NCBI GenBank assembly: GCA_019058445.1
Contig: JAHPZA010000006.1
Location: forward strand, 608,001-672,000
DNA length: 64,000 bases
DNA from: Promethearchaeota archaeon
GTDB taxonomy: Archaea; Asgardarchaeota; Lokiarchaeia; Sigyniarchaeales; SOKP01
Direction of reading: 5' to 3'
Part shown: positions 1,090 to 27,121 of the stretch, piece by piece
Layout of the letters: every line of letters begins with the position of its first letter
Numbering within the stretch: the stretch's first letter is position 1
Program-made: the position numbers and the translations under genes
Notes under the pieces: model-generated
Databases searched by the model: none
The model's input: the letters and a program-made list of their open reading frames with translations, nothing else
Told to the model about the DNA's origin: nothing

Positions 1090-2865
1090 CTATTTATCAA
1101 GTTCTTCAAGACCAAGCTTTTCAAAATAATCAACCATATCTAAAACTGGGAATAACATTGTTGCCAGCATGTACGTTTTTTCTAAATGTCCGTTAGAGGA
1201 AGTTTTTTCCTTCAAAATTTCGTCTAATTTTGATTGAAACTCTTGTATTAGAGATTTAATTTCCTGATATTGCTTTTCAGTTAATAAACGAAAGAAAAAT
1301 GGTAATTCTTCAATATTTTCAACCCATTGAATACCTCTTGGTTTGGTTTCATAAAATTGGCCATAAAGATTTAATCTCGATGTCTCTACCATTTTAATCA
1401 ATTGTCTTGATAATAAATTGATTGTTTTGAATGTGAAAGATTTTTTTTTGTAAAATTCATATATCTCTTCAAAGGATTTCATTGATTCTAAAGTAAATTT
1501 TGAAAAATCAATTTTTTTTGTACTATAGTCTAGATCCTCACTCAATTTATAGTAATTTTTTTTGATGGTACCTGCTTGCGGCTCATCCTCCTTAACATAG
1601 GATTCGATAAGACCTAAATCAATTAAATGTCTGGTATAACGAGATAAAGTAGCTTTACTTTTATTTATTCTTTTAGCTAAATCACTCAGGCTTAATTCTT
1701 TATAAATCCTTAAAAATAATAAGATTTTCATATAGAATTCATTATCGAGAACTTCTGAAAAAGAATTAAACATCATACTACGTAATATCCTGCGGCTCAA
1801 TGAAGCAAAAATTTCATCTACGTTATGACCAGTATTAGCAGAACTATATATATGACTAAATAATTGATGTTTTTTAGCTAGATTCATAGCCTCCTTATTT
1901 GAAATAGCTCTTTTTTCTAGGTCTGTTTTATTACCGACCATTAAAATAGGGACTTCTATATTTCCTCTAACATTTCTAAATTCTTGAATCCATTTATTCA
2001 TATTCTTAATGCTTAAATCATTAGTTAAATCATACATAAAAATACCTCCAGAAGCTCCCCTCATATAATAATATCTAATAGATTTAAATCGATCATCAGC
2101 AGAAATATCCCAAATTTGTAAAGTGATCTTTTTTCCATCTACATCTAAATCTTTTTTAAAAAAATCTACACCGCTTTCCGTTTTTTTAATTTCGGATTTA
2201 GGGTCTTTAGATACAAAATTAGTAACTATTGAAGATTTCCCTACACCCTTATCTCCAAATAAGCAAATCTTAAGTAGTAATTTCTTAGTAATTGTTGAAC
2301 ATATGCCAACTAATAATTGAAAAATTTTATCGAGTTCTTTTTTAAATTCTTCTGTATCTTTTATTGAGGTCTCAATATATTGAGTAATCCCCTCCTTTTT
2401 AGCAAATTTAATAAATTTATTTCTATCTATGTCTTTATTTTCTTTAACTAAATCGATTTTGTTACCAATTAATATAAAAGGGCCATCAATCTCAGCATTC
2501 GTTCGAATTAAATTGAGATATTTTTTAATATATTTCAAAGTTTTTGGTTTTGTAAGGTCAAAAATGAAAATTGCGGCATTAGCACCCTTACAATATTTTT
2601 TATGAACAAACTCGAATTTTTCATCATCAAAAAAAACCCAAAAATGAAATATGTATTCTTCTTTGTTAATCATTAATTTATGTCGAAGGAAATCAACTCC
2701 GATTATATCTCTTATGTCTTCTCCACCTTTCATAAATGGATTGGTGAATGTTGTTTTGCCAACCCCTGACGCTCCAACTACTAAAATTTTAAAACTACCT
2801 TCAGCCATTATTTTATCTTTGATTTTTTTCAATTTAATTTTATTTAAGATCACTTTAATTTTCAC
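1090..2865 (-). CDS. Two tandem Rab-like small GTPase domains fused to a C-terminal winged-HTH (ArsR-like) domain
   Basis: Domain 1 GASGVGKT/GVDF/NKID; domain 2 GDKGVGKS/GVDF/WDISA/NKTD/SAN; then ELSLSDLAKRINKSKATLSRYTRHLIDLGLI; start may be the Met of MAEGSF. Confidence 0.85.
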   Translation of the reverse strand: MKIKVILNKIKLKKIKDKIMAEGSFKILVVGASGVGKTTFTNPFMKGGEDIRDIIGVDFLRHKLMINKEEYIFHFWVFFDDEKFEFVHKKYCKGANAAIFIFDLTKPKTLKYIKKYLNLIRTNAEIDGPFILIGNKIDLVKENKDIDRNKFIKFAKKEGITQYIETSIKDTEEFKKELDKIFQLLVGICSTITKKLLLKICLFGDKGVGKSSIVTNFVSKDPKSEIKKTESGVDFFKKDLDVDGKKITLQIWDISADDRFKSIRYYYMRGASGGIFMYDLTNDLSIKNMNKWIQEFRNVRGNIEVPILMVGNKTDLEKRAISNKEAMNLAKKHQLFSHIYSSANTGHNVDEIFASLSRRILRSMMFNSFSEVLDNEFYMKILLFLRIYKELSLSDLAKRINKSKATLSRYTRHLIDLGLIESYVKEDEPQAGTIKKNYYKLSEDLDYSTKKIDFSKFTLESMKSFEEIYEFYKKKSFTFKTINLLSRQLIKMVETSRLNLYGQFYETKPRGIQWVENIEELPFFFRLLTEKQYQEIKSLIQEFQSKLDEILKEKTSSNGHLEKTYMLATMLFPVLDMVDYFEKLGLEELDK

Positions 2866-21100: not shown

Positions 21101-22183
21101 ATGAGTGAAATAAATTTTAAAAACGACAGAATAAATAAAGCAGGAACACCTCATGAGCTAGGACTTTTCGGAAAGTTTTTACCCTTATGGGTAGCTTTAT
21201 GTATTTTTGCCGGAATCGTCCTTTCTCAGGTTGTTCCCGGAATCAGTGAGACGATAAATTCTTGGACAATAGGGCAAATATCCATTCCAATTGGAATCTG
21301 TTTATTCTTAATGATGTATCCAGGAATGCTGAATCTCCAAGCATCTGAATTGAAGAAGCTTGGTAAAAATCCTAAACCTATCATTTTAACTTTAATATCC
21401 AATTGGATTATAGCTCCTTTTGTTGGTTTAATGATGGCAAGAATCTTTTTACAGGGTCATGAGCAGCTAGTCGTAGCAATTATTTTACTTTCTGCCTCCC
21501 CTTGTACCGCTATGGTCCTTGTATGGGGTTGGATGGCCAGAGGGAACCAAGAGCAAAACGTTACCAATACAAGTTTGAATACCATAACAATTATATTTCT
21601 TTATGTTCCTATTGTTATTCTATTAACTGGCATCCAAAATATTCCAATTGATACAACTCTATTAATAATCTCGTTGATATTTTTTATAGGACTTCCATTA
21701 GCATTAGGAATAACATCAAAAAGACTATTAACGCAAACTAAAGGGGAAGAATGGTTTGAAAGCACTTATCGTCCTATGGTAGGAAAAATGTCGATTGTGG
21801 CATTACTGATAACGTTGATTATCCTTTTTTCTTTAAACGGAGATGTTTTACTTAAAAATCCTGAACTTTTACTCCTAGTTAGCATACCTCTCCTGGTTGG
21901 ATTTGCAATCGTCGTTAGCTATAATGTGATTATTACCAAGCTTTTTAAGCTAAAATATAGAGAAGCAGTCGTTACGGTAATCATTGGCTCATCAAGTCAT
22001 TTCGAAATTGCAATTGCTACTGCGATTGCCATATATGGGATTGGATCTATTGCCGCCTTAGGAACCACAATGGGATTGTTCTGGGAAGTTCCTGTGATGC
22101 TTTCAATAGTTTATTTAGGACGATTTCTTCAAAAACGAGGCTTCTGGGAAGTGAAATTTCCAGAAGATTCAAATAATAATTAA
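21101..22183 (+). CDS. acr3: ACR3-family arsenite efflux transporter
   Basis: LMMYP, NWIIAPF, SPCTAMVLVW, SHFEIAIA, EVPVML; about 10 TM. Confidence 0.95.
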   Translation: MSEINFKNDRINKAGTPHELGLFGKFLPLWVALCIFAGIVLSQVVPGISETINSWTIGQISIPIGICLFLMMYPGMLNLQASELKKLGKNPKPIILTLISNWIIAPFVGLMMARIFLQGHEQLVVAIILLSASPCTAMVLVWGWMARGNQEQNVTNTSLNTITIIFLYVPIVILLTGIQNIPIDTTLLIISLIFFIGLPLALGITSKRLLTQTKGEEWFESTYRPMVGKMSIVALLITLIILFSLNGDVLLKNPELLLLVSIPLLVGFAIVVSYNVIITKLFKLKYREAVVTVIIGSSSHFEIAIATAIAIYGIGSIAALGTTMGLFWEVPVMLSIVYLGRFLQKRGFWEVKFPEDSNNN

Positions 22184-22203: not shown

Positions 22204-23085
22204 ATGAAAGATGAAAAAGTAAAAATAAGTATTGTCAAGGATGAAAATGTAAAAAAGGTTGTTAGAGAAAAATATGGAATGATAGCAAAATCAAGCAGCT
22301 CCTGTTGTGCGCCTGTAAACTCATGTTGCACACCTATAAGTTCTTGCTGTGGAAGTTCCGAAACAGATATTATGAGTATGATTAGTAAAAACATAGGATA
22401 TAGTGATGAAGAACTTAAATCTGTACCAGATGGGGCTAATCTTGGGCTAGGATGTGGAAACCCTGTAGCCTTGGCTTCATTAAAAGAGGGGGAGACTGTT
22501 CTTGATCTAGGTTCTGGAGCGGGAATTGATTGTTTTTTAGCTGCTAATAAAGTGGGAAAATCTGGGAAGGTTATAGGTATTGATATGACACCTGATATGA
22601 TATTGTCAGCTAGAATGTATGCTGAAAAAAGTAATTACGATAACATTGAATTTAGACTCGGAGAGATCGAACATTTACCAGTAGAAACAACTACTGTAGA
22701 TATTATCATTTCCAATTGTGTAATCAATTTAGTGCCAAATAAAGATAGAGCATTTCAAGAAGCTTATAGAGTGTTAAAACCCGGAGGACGCTTGATGATT
22801 TCAGATATTGTTTTATTAAAAGAACTTCCTGATTTCGTTTTAGAATCAATAGATGCTTATATAGGATGTGTTGCTGGTGCGATATTAAAAGAAGACTATA
22901 TTAAATCAATGGAAAATGCAGGATTTACGAAGATTGAAGTGTTGGATGAAACTATGTTTCCAATCGATGTTTTAACTATTAATCCAAAAGTTATGGAAAT
23001 AGTCAAAGAGATGAATATTGAGCCTCAAATGTTAAAAGACATAGCGAATTCAGTAGTAAGCATAAAAGTAAAAGCATATAAATAA
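22204..23085 (+). CDS. arsM: Arsenite S-adenosylmethionine methyltransferase
   Basis: LGLGCGNP, LDLGSGAGID, SNCVINL, GCVAGA; N-terminal triple CC tract. Confidence 0.95.
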   Translation: MKDEKVKISIVKDENVKKVVREKYGMIAKSSSSCCAPVNSCCTPISSCCGSSETDIMSMISKNIGYSDEELKSVPDGANLGLGCGNPVALASLKEGETVLDLGSGAGIDCFLAANKVGKSGKVIGIDMTPDMILSARMYAEKSNYDNIEFRLGEIEHLPVETTTVDIIISNCVINLVPNKDRAFQEAYRVLKPGGRLMISDIVLLKELPDFVLESIDAYIGCVAGAILKEDYIKSMENAGFTKIEVLDETMFPIDVLTINPKVMEIVKEMNIEPQMLKDIANSVVSIKVKAYK

Positions 23086-23125: not shown

Positions 23126-24775
23126 ATGGCCGTAACCTATATGCGTAGATTGGAGGAAGAACCAGAAACTTACGATTTAAAATTTACAGCTCTCACTAAG
23201 GGACTAAATATCAAAGTTCAAGAGTGGGTATTGCGTCGAATTCCTGATTCCCAATCAATTTTAGAAGTAGGTTGCGGTACTGGCGCTCTAGCATCGAAAA
23301 TGGCACTTAAAGGTAATAATGTTGTTGCAATTGATAAAAACTTTCAAATGATTAATTATGCAATGCAAAATTATCCTTCTGAAGAGAATGTCAATCTTTT
23401 ATATCAAATTGGAACATTTACAGAATTCCCAGTTGAGAAGAATTCAAAGGATATAATTGTGAGTACTTTTATGTTATCTGAGCTTAGACCATTTGAACAT
23501 CAAATATTTTTGCGAAAAGCATGGAGTGCTCTAAAACCAAATGGTCGAATCATATTAGCTGCTGAATTTATTCCTTCAGGAATTTGGAGGATTCCTTTTA
23601 AAATAAAGCGTTGGTGGTTTAAAAAGAAATTACGTAGACTCAGATTAAGAACTACTTTCTTAGTAAAATGGTTTTATAATTATATTGAGCCAATCGGCTT
23701 TAAAATTCAAACCCTAAAAACTTGGAAACACGGTTCCATACAAGCTATGGAATTAGTAAAGCTAGGCAAAGAACCAGGATTTTATCGCCCCAAACCAAAA
23801 AAGTTTAAAGGAATCCGCGCTCAACTAAGGATATATCGATGTTTATTTACTGGTCAGATTGATCATGTTCCCATAGAACCCGGTATTTATCAATCCGGGC
23901 ACCCTAATGAAAATTCCCCCATTATAGTTACAGCGAATTACGAGTATACATACATTAAAGTTATGCGTAACCTAAAAGGACTTGATGCGTGGGTTTTATG
24001 TGTAGATTCCAATGGAATAAATGTATGGTGCGCTGCTCGTGGTAATGATTTTGGAAATGCCCAATTACTTGAAGCAGTGGAGGCAACAGAAATTCGCAAT
24101 CTTACACAGAAAAAAAAACTTTTACTTCCCCAACTCTCTGCTGGTGGAGTTGCTATACCACAATTACCTAGAAATTCAGAAAATTTTCCATTTAAAATTG
24201 TCTATGGCCCAATTTGGTCAAAAGATATTCGGAAGTATAATGATGAACAACCCGTAAGAAAACCAGACTCAATGAAAATTGCTAAATTTACGGTTTCCCA
24301 TCGAATACGAGCAGGGATTACACATACGACTTTTCTTTTAAGAAAAATCTTTCTTTTACCTCTTATAATCATAGCAGGTTTGTTGTTAGCATTAAATTGG
24401 GAAAATAAGTTATGGTGGATTGGAGAATTATTCATGTGGATTATAATAACAAACGCAATTATCGCTTTTTTATTCCCTCTTTCAAATTTTACCAGAAAAT
24501 TCATTAATAAGGGAATTTTCTTTGGAACTATTAATATATTAGTTTTAGGAGGGATTTCTTGGATATTGCATGGATCATTACTCTTTATTCTCTGGAACTT
24601 GAGTTTTTATTTTTGGATTGCATTTTTTTCCACTATGTCTTTTAGCGGATATACAATGTCAACAAGTCCAAGGGAAATTCAAACCGAATATAGGTTGTTT
24701 TTGATGGTAAATAAAATTTTACTTATTATAAGCTTATTTTTTTTAGCTTTTGGAATAATATTTTATATAATTTAA
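23126..24775 (+). CDS. Class I SAM methyltransferase fused to an HgcA-like corrinoid/membrane protein
   Basis: N-term LEVGCGTG and STFMLSEL; C-term EPGIY..SPIIVTANY..GINVWCAARG..LPQLSAGGV..YGPI, TM helices and MSFSGYTMSTSP tail as in HgcA. Confidence 0.85.
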   Translation: MAVTYMRRLEEEPETYDLKFTALTKGLNIKVQEWVLRRIPDSQSILEVGCGTGALASKMALKGNNVVAIDKNFQMINYAMQNYPSEENVNLLYQIGTFTEFPVEKNSKDIIVSTFMLSELRPFEHQIFLRKAWSALKPNGRIILAAEFIPSGIWRIPFKIKRWWFKKKLRRLRLRTTFLVKWFYNYIEPIGFKIQTLKTWKHGSIQAMELVKLGKEPGFYRPKPKKFKGIRAQLRIYRCLFTGQIDHVPIEPGIYQSGHPNENSPIIVTANYEYTYIKVMRNLKGLDAWVLCVDSNGINVWCAARGNDFGNAQLLEAVEATEIRNLTQKKKLLLPQLSAGGVAIPQLPRNSENFPFKIVYGPIWSKDIRKYNDEQPVRKPDSMKIAKFTVSHRIRAGITHTTFLLRKIFLLPLIIIAGLLLALNWENKLWWIGELFMWIIITNAIIAFLFPLSNFTRKFINKGIFFGTINILVLGGISWILHGSLLFILWNLSFYFWIAFFSTMSFSGYTMSTSPREIQTEYRLFLMVNKILLIISLFFLAFGIIFYII

Positions 24776-24812: not shown

Positions 24813-25124
24813 ATGACAGAATTAAAATCAAATCAAAGTTCATGCTGCACTCCGCAAGCGATTGTGCTTCCTCGTATTTTTATAAATACTTCTACATGTA
24901 CGGGGTGTGGCTTATGCGGAGAAGTATGCCCTTTCGGTCTCCCTAAACAGAATAATTCAGGAAAGTACGAAATACCCCATCCCGAACTATGCACTGAATG
25001 TAGTGCTTGTTTTAGAAACTGCCCTACACAAGCCATTATGATGCAAGAACAAAAAGGATGTGGTTGTTTATGGGATACACGTCAAAGAGCAAAAAATTCA
25101 CAGCAAAATTTATGCTGTGGTTAA
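24813..25124 (+). CDS. HgcB-like 2x[4Fe-4S] ferredoxin
   Basis: CTGCGLCGEVCP and CTECSACFRNCP, then KGCGC and terminal CCG; directly after hgcA-like gene. Confidence 0.85.
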   Translation: MTELKSNQSSCCTPQAIVLPRIFINTSTCTGCGLCGEVCPFGLPKQNNSGKYEIPHPELCTECSACFRNCPTQAIMMQEQKGCGCLWDTRQRAKNSQQNLCCG

Positions 25125-25147: not shown

Positions 25148-25537
25148 ATGGAAAAAGAAGAATTAAAAAAAATTGAAAATTCTTGTTGTACACAAAGCAC
25201 ATCGTGCTGTGGAAGTGCTGAGTCAGATCTTATCGATACATCAACTAATAAGGGGATTAAAAATGAATTAGATCCAAGTAAGCTAAATGTTGATATATAT
25301 GTTCCTCTAGACGCCTGTGCATGCGAGTGGTCTCAATTTATGAATCTTATTTTTAGTGCCCTTACACCACATATTAAATATATTAAATATGAAACAAAAA
25401 ACTTAAATTCTAAAGAAGCTCGAAGCCTTAATATTCGGAGCAAATGCGTTATAGTTGACGGAGAAAAAAAATATACAACCTCATATGCCTTAAAGAAAGA
25501 TCTACCTAATTTATTGAAAGAAAAGGGAATCCTATAA
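25148..25537 (+). CDS. Cys-rich small protein, probable thioredoxin-like fold (ArsD-like chaperone?)
   Basis: N-term SCCTQSTSCCG; DIYVPLDACAC; CVIVDGE. Confidence 0.6.
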   Translation: MEKEELKKIENSCCTQSTSCCGSAESDLIDTSTNKGIKNELDPSKLNVDIYVPLDACACEWSQFMNLIFSALTPHIKYIKYETKNLNSKEARSLNIRSKCVIVDGEKKYTTSYALKKDLPNLLKEKGIL

Positions 25538-25574: not shown

Positions 25575-26045
25575 ATGAAAAAGATTTTTTTTGATATCAA
25601 TTTACCAATAAAGAATTTTCAAAAGGGTAAGAAGTACACAGTTGAAGTAAAAGACAACGCTACATTTTTAGAATGTCTCGCGATGGTTGATAAGCAAGAA
25701 CTCGAAGATCCAAAATCCATTTTTCCTATAAACGAGGGATTTATCCACAATTATTTACAGTTATTGGTTAACATCGAAGAAAATTATATTTACGATGATG
25801 TAGGGGTATATGCTTATGGTCCGGATGAAAATGGACTTATGAGAAAATTCATTCCAATTAGAGATAATGTAGAATTTAACGTATATCCTGACAGTGAAAT
25901 TCAATTACAACCTGATGTTGGATGTTGATGAGAAGCGGTGCAAGATCGGCTGGATATTGGAAAATTTAAAACAGTCCTACGTAAACGATATGGGAAAGAT
26001 AACGATTATTTTGCACATTACTTTAAAAAAGAAAAAGAAAAATAA
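25575..26045 (+). CDS. MoaD/ThiS/Urm1-like ubiquitin-fold protein, candidate selenoprotein with C-U-U motif (156 aa with readthrough; 117 aa if TGA is stop)
   Basis: Beta-grasp pattern ending EIQLQPDVGC; TGA TGA at 25926-25931; 37 further open codons to TAA 26043-26045; SECIS-like hairpin follows. Confidence 0.72.
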
Positions 26046-26047
26046 TA

Positions 26048-26093
26048 TGTTGAATGAAATCTTTCAAAAAATTGTAGTGAAAGATTGACAATA
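26048..26093 (+). ncRNA. SECIS-like element (eukaryote/Lokiarchaeia type) in 3' UTR
   Basis: TGTTG/CAATA lower stem, AAU bulge with tandem GA/GA kink-turn core (AUGA..GA), AATCTTTCA/TGAAAGATT upper stem, A-rich loop AAAAATTGTAG. Confidence 0.75.
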
Positions 26094-26161
26094 GGACCGC
26101 CTCCTATATTTCTTAATGAATAATTTAAAAAATCTCGTTATATTTTCTATCGTGAATATAT

Positions 26162-27121
26162 ATGGATATTTTCTCACATTTTTTATTTGCAATGCTGCTA
26201 TGTGTTTACTTTATGAGGTCATCCAGCGAGGAACTTGTAATTTTTGCAGGTTTAATGGCAGTATTGGCTGATTTTGATGTTTTTTTGCATTCTTTTAAAG
26301 TTGTGAGAAAATCTAAATTGTTGACCCATAAAGGAATTTCTCACTCTTATTTTGCTGCTCTAATTGTGTCTGCGCCTGCTGCGGGTATTTTTTCTTTAAT
26401 AACAGGAGAATCATTTCTACTATCTTGGATGATTGGCTTTATTTTTTATAGTCTTCATGTTACCCTCGATGCTTCAGCCGCATCTAAAATCCCTCTTTTT
26501 TATCCCATCTCAAAGAAACGGTTTCGATTTTTTATCGATCGGGCAATAAACCCTATATTAGCAATGATTTCAGGTATAGTTCTTCTTTTTTATTTGATTA
26601 TTTATTTTGTTAGTCCCGAGATTTTTTATTCTGATTTAATATATTACGTCTCATTGTTTTATTTCGGATATTTAGCTTACAAAATACTTACTAAAATTTG
26701 GGTTCAATTAAGACTGCCCAAAAATCAAAAATATATCCCCGGAATTCTTCCATTTGTTTACTATATTTACGAAAACCACAATTCAGATGCTAGGCTAATA
26801 TTTACACTCTCCAAAAAATATCAATTTCTTCCGAAAACTATGAAATTAATAGAAACTGAAATTATAACTGGATCTAAAGAAATGGAATATTTTAATAAAG
26901 CGAAAACGCTTAGCAAAAACTATATGTTCTTTTCTAAATGGGAGGCAGTAATTCCGATAATCTTAGACAATAATCGGTTTGTTGTTGTATTGCTTTTTTT
27001 AGCCGAAAGTTATGCTAATGGAAGAGCCTATACACTTGAAGTTGTTTTTGATAAAAATTCAAAAGAGCTGGTCCATATCTCTGATGGATTTGGTCGTGGT
27101 TTAACTGATTACCACAGCTAA
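26162..27121 (+). CDS. Membrane-bound metal-dependent hydrolase (YdjM-like)
   Basis: MDIFSH, ADFD, HKGISHS, HVTLD; TM helices. Confidence 0.85.
   Translation: MDIFSHFLFAMLLCVYFMRSSSEELVIFAGLMAVLADFDVFLHSFKVVRKSKLLTHKGISHSYFAALIVSAPAAGIFSLITGESFLLSWMIGFIFYSLHVTLDASAASKIPLFYPISKKRFRFFIDRAINPILAMISGIVLLFYLIIYFVSPEIFYSDLIYYVSLFYFGYLAYKILTKIWVQLRLPKNQKYIPGILPFVYYIYENHNSDARLIFTLSKKYQFLPKTMKLIETEIITGSKEMEYFNKAKTLSKNYMFFSKWEAVIPIILDNNRFVVVLLFLAESYANGRAYTLEVVFDKNSKELVHISDGFGRGLTDYHS

Follow-up and report, generated by a model that had tools for sequence, protein, structure and literature searches.

A Lokiarchaeial gene family with two adjacent UGA codons, a 3' lokiSECIS element and a probable Gly-Cys-Sec-Sec motif on a predicted beta-grasp protein

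In the genome of a Promethearchaeota archaeon of the class Lokiarchaeia (assembly GCA_019058445.1; 10 contigs, 4.6 Mb, 92.6% complete), we identified a small gene that very probably is a genuine selenoprotein gene in which the tandem TGA-TGA is not a stop. The gene is located on the forward strand at positions 25575 to 26045 of a 64,000-nucleotide (nt) stretch of contig JAHPZA010000006.1 (G000:C6:608001-672000; hereafter the window), and the tandem TGA codons are at 25926-25931. Under the explanation favored here, a lokiSECIS, a selenocysteine insertion sequence (SECIS) located in the 3' untranslated region (26048-26093), would bring EFsec and Sec-tRNA(Sec) to the two neighboring UGAs, each of which would then be read as selenocysteine (Sec; U in the motifs below). 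The product would be a protein of 156 amino acids (aa) that consists of a beta-grasp domain resembling SAMP and MoaD, an exposed Gly-Cys-Sec-Sec linker and a conserved, basic helical tail. Taken whole, with a function proposed from conserved residues and gene context, this explanation appears to have a probability of about 0.85, and its decoding part, the lokiSECIS/EFsec route, is well supported. The family is almost certainly a new selenoprotein family that employs a known decoding mechanism.

The full coding sequence (CDS) comprises 156 codons and a TAA, with both TGA codons taken as Sec, and its orthologues align over query residues 1-153. The start codon (ATG at 25575) is preceded by a GGGG-type ribosome-binding stretch, and the sequence ahead of the UGAs reads ...Q-P-D-V-G-C. 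The Cys117 codon (TGT, 25923-25925) is followed directly by the two TGA codons (25926-25928 and 25929-25931), which together form the putative Cys117-Sec118-Sec119 triplet at 25923-25931, and the same frame then continues for 37 sense codons (residues 120-156, 25932-26042) to the TAA at 26043-26045. An earlier note on this DNA, made from the sequence by itself, described an open reading frame (ORF) ending in TGT TGA TGA that stays open up to this TAA, with a hairpin 2 nt further on; both are present, the hairpin at 26048-26093.

When the 156-aa read-through product was compared with the six-frame translations of 161 genomes of the class, a homologue was detected in 138 of them. Nearly all the matches listed span query residues 1 to ~153 across exactly two in-frame TGA codons, and some contain three. 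Thirty loci were extracted, 29 of which are not cut by a contig end; G-C-U-U is found in all 29 uncut loci and is followed by a conserved tail with a consensus of roughly E-K-V-K-N-R-L-D-I-G-x-F-K-T...Y-F-A-H-Y-F-K-K. Neither TGA codon varies among these 29 orthologues, while synonymous variation is seen at the Cys codon (25 TGT, 4 TGC). The ratio of nonsynonymous to synonymous variation (pN/pS) is 0.250 in the tail and 0.269 in the N-terminal part, with a pS of ~0.70 in both, and variability by codon position is alike in the tail and in the upstream part. By these measures the tail, for which helices are predicted as well, evolves as coding sequence in the same manner as the body of the protein. 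Synonymous variation extends to E120 (GAA/GAG) and K121 (AAA/AAG), the two residues that separate the UGAs from the first codon at which translation could restart. C-U-U is still present in homologues that share only 22-36% identity with the query and come from other families of the class, among them three genomes assembled as single contigs. The pattern anticipated in the earlier note for a true stop, namely homologues ending in Gly-Cys followed by TAA or TAG, is the opposite of what was found, because TGA-TGA and the downstream frame are both conserved, and the conservation at the protein level beyond the UGAs, for which the earlier note proposed a read-through search of Asgard genomes, is seen in nearly all the matches listed.

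The family is near-ubiquitous in the class and is routinely mis-annotated as a ~118-aa protein ending in Gly-Cys. Among 1.84 billion proteins it is represented by only 30 cluster representatives; all public homologues that have a name are labeled 'hypothetical protein', and most of them end at Gly-Cys, with a few given as G-C-W-W under genetic code 4. One member (L018, within 1501-1968 on the forward strand) has a third in-frame TGA at a position where the others have Gly (D-I-U-N-F), which may be an extra Sec, a polymorphism or an error.

A tandem paralogue (L039:931-1389, forward strand; also P0050 and P0055) contains S-S-A-U-G-U-U, that is, three Sec and no Cys, and is followed by a lokiSECIS of its own. 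Several genomes carry the C-U-U form and the A-U-G-U-U paralogue side by side. With U-G-U-U in the paralogue and C-U-U in the main form, three chalcogen residues are conserved in both.

The contrary possibility, that the tandem UGAs are a true stop, implies a 117-aa protein ending in Gly-Cys and a separate ~35-aa peptide restarted at a GTG codon. It finds a small opening in the Val122 codon (25938-25940, three codons past the UGAs), which is GTG in 26 of the 30 orthologues despite the AT-rich genome, and some gene callers give the tail as an ORF of its own, of 37-39 aa (P0071, P0077). We nevertheless regard restart as very improbable. The codon is GTA in the other four orthologues, the first 10 tail codons of L039 include no start codon, and the distant homologues carry I, F, V or M at position 122. 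The two codons preceding the GTG behave as coding, and the lokiSECIS, which a restart does not need, is maintained at a fixed distance. In addition, the only relative free of Sec (P0068) is a single continuous protein of 157 aa, and the structural model of the family protein is one compact unit, with a predicted template modeling score (pTM) of 0.81. The preference for GTG at Val122 may have to do with the sequence context of recoding and not with initiation.

UGA is a normal stop here and only particular UGAs are recoded, given that it terminates 250 of the 1984 long ORFs of the host genome and that seven family members genuinely end at a UGA located within the AUGA of the SECIS or a few bases ahead of the element. 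The same observations speak against reading of the tandem UGAs by a route other than Sec, either near-cognate decoding as Trp or Cys or a change of the code in the lineage, which is how those public gene calls that translate homologues as G-C-W-W under code 4 would have it; the presence of a SECIS and of complete Sec machinery is a further argument against it. A decaying pseudogene is at odds with purifying selection across the 138 genomes. An assembly error is excluded since TGATGA is identical in contigs from four public runs that belong to four different studies. Collectively, these non-Sec explanations have a negligible share of the probability, and recoding as Sec is the reading that we follow below.

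The second line of evidence for recoding is the element at 26048-26093. Helix I is formed by UGUUG (26048-26052) and CAAUA (26089-26093), and is followed by an unpaired A26053, the AUGA (26054-26057) and, on the opposite side, the GA (26087-26088). Helix II is a perfect stem of 9 base pairs (bp; 26058-26066 with 26078-26086), closed by an apical loop of 11 nt, AAAAAUUGUAG (26067-26077), which begins with AAAAA and ends with AG. The distance from the first UGA to the AUGA is 128 nt. In the definition of lokiSECIS (Mariotti et al., 2016, PMC4989117), AUGA lies directly 5' of a 9-bp stem and GA lies 3' of it, the apical loop has 11 nt with a preference for A at the first five positions and an ultraconserved last G that is usually preceded by A, and the element is placed near the end of the CDS. 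The segment 26054-26088 satisfies every one of these published features. The folding energy taken alone is ordinary (-8.6 kcal/mol, z -1.7), and it is comparison across genomes that gives the hairpin its weight. A scripted search of both strands with the strict lokiSECIS pattern returned 6 sites in the 4.6-Mb genome, compared with 0, 0, 2, 1, 0 and 0 sites in six shuffled genomes.

The element is present in 28 of the 30 loci, 112-128 nt past the first UGA. Of the two loci that lack it at the expected place, one is cut by a contig end, and in the other (L036) the element lies behind a second UGA-containing ORF. In the family alignment, helix II is paired in 93% of the cells, and compensatory, double-sided changes occur at two pairs, columns 18-45 and 24-39 (AU/GU/CG/UA and CG/UA/UG); the covariation score exceeds those of all 500 shuffles and of all slid controls. 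A hairpin core lacking conservation had been named as a sign against the proposal, and the core turns out to be conserved, with covariation. Scoring of the hairpin with a covariance model (R1), likewise envisaged at the outset and carried out with a model trained only on orthologous elements of other genomes, gave 67.8 bits (E 3e-14) for 26048-26093, the sole significant match in the window. At E <= 10, R1 missed the SECIS elements of VhuU and PrxL in this genome, which says nothing against a shared class because the stem sequence of the family dominates the model.

Directly 3' of the SECIS there is a second conserved small hairpin, UAGGA-N5-UCCUA (26092-26106, forward strand), which is paired in 87.9% of the cells and shares bases with the two outermost pairs of helix I. 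The hairpin pair 52-66 is seen as UA, AU and CG, and the loop is mostly UUGCC. This hairpin could be an mRNA 3'-end or stabilizing element.

The host encodes the machinery for Sec insertion, whose lack would have spoken against the earlier note: a tRNA-Sec, a PSTK-like gene, SepSecS, EFsec and a Sec-containing selenophosphate synthetase (SelD) are all present. SepSecS scores 477.6 bits, above the curated cut-off, EFsec scores 242.3 bits, and SelD has an in-frame TGA at the active-site position; the PSTK-like gene, at 149 bits, is below the NCBIfam cut-off of 290.5 bits. A search of the whole genome with RF01852 found no tRNA-Sec, nor did ARAGORN with introns disallowed. With introns allowed, ARAGORN reports a 'tRNA-SeC' on contig 1, which was rejected because Rfam scores it as an ordinary tRNA. 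The lead came from a weak RF01852 match 4 kb from EFsec, on the opposite strand, and the tRNA-Sec was recognized only after two introns had been removed by hand. The gene spans 155 nt (C6:1059763-1059917, equivalent to L054:7764-7918, reverse strand) and is interrupted in the D arm by an intron of 34 nt and in the T loop by one of 31 nt; 9 nt of the first intron are complementary to the start of the second, which misled the Rfam alignment into calling an acceptor stem. After splicing, the predicted cloverleaf (-48.4 kcal/mol) has an acceptor stem of 9 bp and a D stem of 7 bp closed by a 4-nt loop; the anticodon is UCA, the variable arm is long and the discriminator base is G. The published Lokiarchaeial tRNA-Sec has the same T-loop intron and the same position near EFsec, with a T stem of 4 bp compared with 5 bp here in an unconstrained fold. 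From the conserved frame, the SECIS and this machinery we infer the insertion of Sec itself.

An AlphaFold model built from 24 orthologues has a mean predicted local distance difference test score (pLDDT) of 81.7 and a pTM of 0.81. Residues 1-113 (25575-25913) are modeled as a beta-hairpin, a helix and further strands, C117-U118-U119 are located on a linker of lower confidence (pLDDT ~68), and the tail has predicted helices at 120-125, 128-139 and 147-150. In an exhaustive VIA-align search, this protein matched SAMP1 (4hro, Z 7.1), CysO (4n6e_B, Z 6.8) and MoaD (1vjk, Z 6.2); the top match, by a hair, was the cobalamin-binding beta domain of intrinsic factor and transcobalamin (Z 7.2), so that all four kinds of match fall within 1 Z unit. 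The matches from Foldseek are weak and mostly to ubiquitin-like or other beta-grasp domains. It is reasonable to assign residues 1-113 to a predicted beta-grasp domain like those of SAMP, MoaD and CysO. The ubiquitin- or MoaD-like fold initially suggested is thus backed by the predicted structure, at Z 6-7, and has no counterpart in a match at the sequence level. A transcobalamin-like reading, which would fit the location beside a corrinoid protein, was considered and set aside given that its Z of 7.2 ties with those of SAMP1, CysO and MoaD and that the gene pair also occurs with ArsM alone.

In addition to the GTG preference at Val122, several observations weigh against the proposed recoding and fold. 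No homologue with Cys in place of Sec was found (30 representatives in 1.84 billion proteins, nine of which were read), and the alignment of UGA with Cys that the earlier note proposed to look for did not emerge among the representatives read, although such Cys forms are common for selenoproteins without being a requirement; of the three that span the site, two have W-W, from a call of TGA as Trp, and one, the Sec-free P0068, has C-V-S. No Rfam SECIS family was detected in the whole window at gathering thresholds or in 25800-26300 at E <= 10. The SECIS-finding tools tried by Mariotti et al. likewise miss every lokiSECIS (PMC4989117), so this null result is uninformative. One metatranscriptome contains just two 151-nt contigs on the gene, too few to claim transcription, and the one that bridges the UGAs is short and might be DNA carry-over. 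Finally, the fold match is middling, Z values of ~7 being common, and has no support from sequence: the 156-aa protein matches no Pfam family at E <= 0.1 (including ThiS/MoaD and ArsD) and no NCBIfam family, and neither this protein nor its thioredoxin-fold partner has a relevant sequence match among the solved structures of the Protein Data Bank.

This partner is encoded directly upstream of the C-U-U gene in 27 of the 29 loci. In the window it is a 129-aa protein (25148-25537, forward strand) with a Cys-rich N-terminal tail (CC...CC) and a thioredoxin-fold domain with an invariant C57-A-C59. The conserved 88-aa domain is modeled confidently as a thioredoxin fold (pLDDT 94.1; thioredoxins matched at Z up to 10.2), with C-A-C at the position of CxxC. 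The domain is found fused to the C-terminus of ArsM in three loci (L033:2007-3125 and L035:2002-3111, reverse strand; L036:226-1344, forward strand), which ties the gene pair to arsenite methylation.

The upstream genes, all on the forward strand, are those for an Acr3-type arsenite efflux permease (21101-22183, named from sequence with no family scan; orthologue adjacent in L033 and L035), an ArsM-like methyltransferase with a CC-rich N-terminus (22204-23085; Pfam Methyltransf_31, 1e-39; orthologues beside the pair in L033, L035 and L036), a CpaM-like S-adenosylmethionine (SAM)-dependent methyltransferase fused to an HgcA-like corrinoid/membrane protein (23126-24775; Pfam Methyltransf_25 and CdhD), and an HgcB-like 2x[4Fe-4S] ferredoxin (24813-25124; Pfam Fer4 families). 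The fusion protein scores 165.9 bits with NCBIfam HgcA_corrinoid and 135.1 bits with CpaM, and the ferredoxin 50.8 bits with HgcB_ferredoxin, all below the cut-offs. The CpaM-like part is a class I SAM-methyltransferase, and the HgcA-like part contains the motif N-V-W-C-A-A-R-G; SAM has recently been reported as the methyl donor of HgcAB (PMC11588087). At the level of the taxonomic family, within which the conservation of gene order holds, the order is [Acr3 - ArsM] and/or [SAM-methyltransferase::HgcA-like - HgcB-like], partner, C-U-U gene, and a YdjM membrane protein.

We tentatively propose that the protein provides a soft-ligand Cys/Sec/Sec claw for As(III)-type species. The triad would bind As(III) or another trivalent metalloid, Hg(II), or methylated forms of these, and the claw would pass its ligand on within the ArsM / CpaM::HgcA-like module, working with the adjacent thioredoxin-fold CxC protein that is fused to ArsM in some genomes. 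The case for metal binding and for contact with the partner is circumstantial, from three conserved chalcogens and ars/hgc-like synteny. Two observations weigh against this function: the distant C-U-U homologues in other Lokiarchaeial families are found in unrelated contexts outside ars operons, which makes an arsenic-specific role impossible for the family as a whole, and the Sec-free C-V-S relative adjoins a NifU_N gene. The suggestion of an As(III)/Hg(II) site in the earlier note accordingly has the synteny with ArsM, the HgcAB-like pair and the CxC partner in its favor and the distant homologues outside ars against it.

A more elaborate version, which we consider rather unlikely, is a selenium-armed ubiquitin-fold carrier that shuttles As(III) or a methyl-metal(loid) between the CxC partner, ArsM, the CpaM::HgcA-like corrinoid methylase and Acr3. 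If true, it would be without precedent both as a metalloid chaperone based on selenium and as a metal carrier with a ubiquitin-like fold, in the archaeal lineage closest to eukaryotes, and a single eukaryote-like SECIS would have to decode efficiently two or three UGAs that are adjacent or one codon apart.

With the same recoding, G-C-U-U might alternatively be a redox center, a selenenylsulfide or diselenide resembling the tail of animal thioredoxin reductase. It would feed electrons to the CxC protein, which in turn would return ArsM or the HgcA-like protein to the reduced state each time a methyl group has been transferred. The turnover of ArsM requires a thioredoxin-type reductant. The G-C-U on a linker of pLDDT ~68, and a thioredoxin-fold partner whose CxC falls in the place of CxxC and which three genomes fuse to ArsM, are compatible with such a role; the C-U-U homologues outside ars operons suit a general redox function better than an arsenic-specific one, and most uncharacterized selenoproteins are thought to be redox proteins (PMC13188914). 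Conversely, the conserved pair includes no flavin or NAD(P)H domain, nor any other obvious electron source, and three chalcogens, the number required for trigonal As(III)-type coordination, are conserved in both paralogue types, whereas a redox couple needs two. We regard the redox role as the main rival, somewhat less likely than the metalloid claw, which is retained as the working proposal.

Besides the site described, the genome has five other strict lokiSECIS sites. One (SECIS at C3:331342) lies behind a PrxL gene whose motif is U-x-x-U (AhpC-TSA, 78 bits), and another follows a 50-aa VhuU-like ORF with the motif D-C-U-x-x-C-x-x-H, for which no Pfam family was found at E <= 0.01, so that the assignment rests on the motif. 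Two further strict sites follow other small ORFs with an in-frame UGA. One of these ORFs, of 127 aa (L056:506-886, reverse strand), contains an in-frame TGA (G-G-S-U-T-M-A-F-C-G) and is followed after 7 nt by a strict lokiSECIS (AUGA at L056:499, G000:C10:79298); it has no significant Pfam family, TIR at E 0.075 being the only match, and may be a further unlisted selenoprotein. The other strict site (L059, ~1169, reverse strand; G000:C3:332068) comes after a short zinc-ribbon-like ORF (C-x-x-C...C-P-N-C) that ends ...R-F-K-U-stop; directly downstream of it lies the PrxL gene with the separate SECIS given above. In L036, a Cys-rich ORF of 74 codons with four in-frame TGA codons (1971-2195, forward strand) is located between the C-U-U gene and the SECIS (L036:2202-2247), an arrangement that suggests one SECIS serving two genes, as reported for HdrA-VhuD.

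Huang et al. (2024, PMC11227280), who used known families as homology queries against more than 400 Asgard genomes, listed seven selenoprotein families, and a 2026 review lists eleven archaeal and 119 prokaryotic families. The C-U-U motif and any ubiquitin-like or beta-grasp entry are absent from the families of that review and are likewise outside the seven Asgard families, and the family is described in none of the papers searched; the list of Lokiarchaeial selenoproteins in the earlier note has no ubiquitin-like protein either. The present family would be the twelfth in archaea. As it is found in most genomes of the class, Asgard selenoproteomes derived from homology to known families are undercounted. 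In public annotations the protein stops short at Gly-Cys. The adjacent Sec codons and the three-Sec paralogue, each served by one eukaryote-like SECIS, offer a natural substrate for the question of how Sec insertion can be processive in the archaeal counterpart nearest to the eukaryotic system. The recurrent association with ArsM, the HgcAB-like pair and the CxC protein suggests arsenic or mercury chemistry assisted by selenium in Asgard archaea of sediments. The protein also presents a predicted ubiquitin-like fold whose Gly-Gly end is replaced by a Cys/Sec motif.

The closest known systems are the other lokiSECIS genes (SelD, HdrA-VhuD, VhuU and PrxL; PMC4989117, PMC11227280), which share the recoding signal 3' of the stop, the type of genome and the machinery, and several of which likewise hold multiple Sec per gene. 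In the family described here, by contrast, the Sec codons are directly adjacent, a three-Sec paralogue exists, no Cys form was found among the representatives read, and the fold is a predicted beta-grasp, whereas the known families have thioredoxin-like or hydrogenase folds. Sec forms of ArsM, HgcA, HgcB, the MerB-like SaoL, SaoC and MbdU have been described in bacteria (PMC13188914; bioRxiv 10.1101/2022.07.06.499078). These organometal(loid) selenoproteins share with the present family the CU motifs, the context of arsenic and mercury methylation and resistance, and the UGA-truncated database entries; they differ in having a bacterial-type SECIS within the CDS and in belonging to different families, none of the NCBIfam models matching the 156-aa protein.

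The sulfur carriers MoaD, ThiS, CysO, SAMP and Urm1 have in common with this protein the predicted beta-grasp and a flexible segment, directly past the final strand, that carries the reactive residues. These carriers end in a free Gly-Gly; here V-G-C-U-U occupies that place and is followed by 37 conserved residues, so that adenylation and the acyl-adenylate or thiocarboxylate chemistry are not expected. Also unlike these carriers, the gene has no E1-like (MoeB/ThiF/UbaA) gene among its neighbors, which encode a thioredoxin-fold protein and a YdjM membrane protein and to which this comparison was confined.

Animal thioredoxin reductase, a pyridine-nucleotide disulfide oxidoreductase, has a C-terminal Gly-Cys-Sec-Gly redox center. 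The Gly and the vicinal Cys-Sec on a mobile segment are shared with the predicted protein, next to which a thioredoxin-fold partner is encoded; unlike the reductase, it has a second Sec, an internal rather than C-terminal motif and no flavoprotein domain. ArsD is a thioredoxin-fold metallochaperone for As(III) that employs Cys12, Cys13 and Cys18 and contains no selenium. The small size, the three close chalcogen ligands and the ars operon are common to both; in the system described here, the thioredoxin fold belongs to the neighboring gene, and the triad is carried by the predicted beta-grasp protein.

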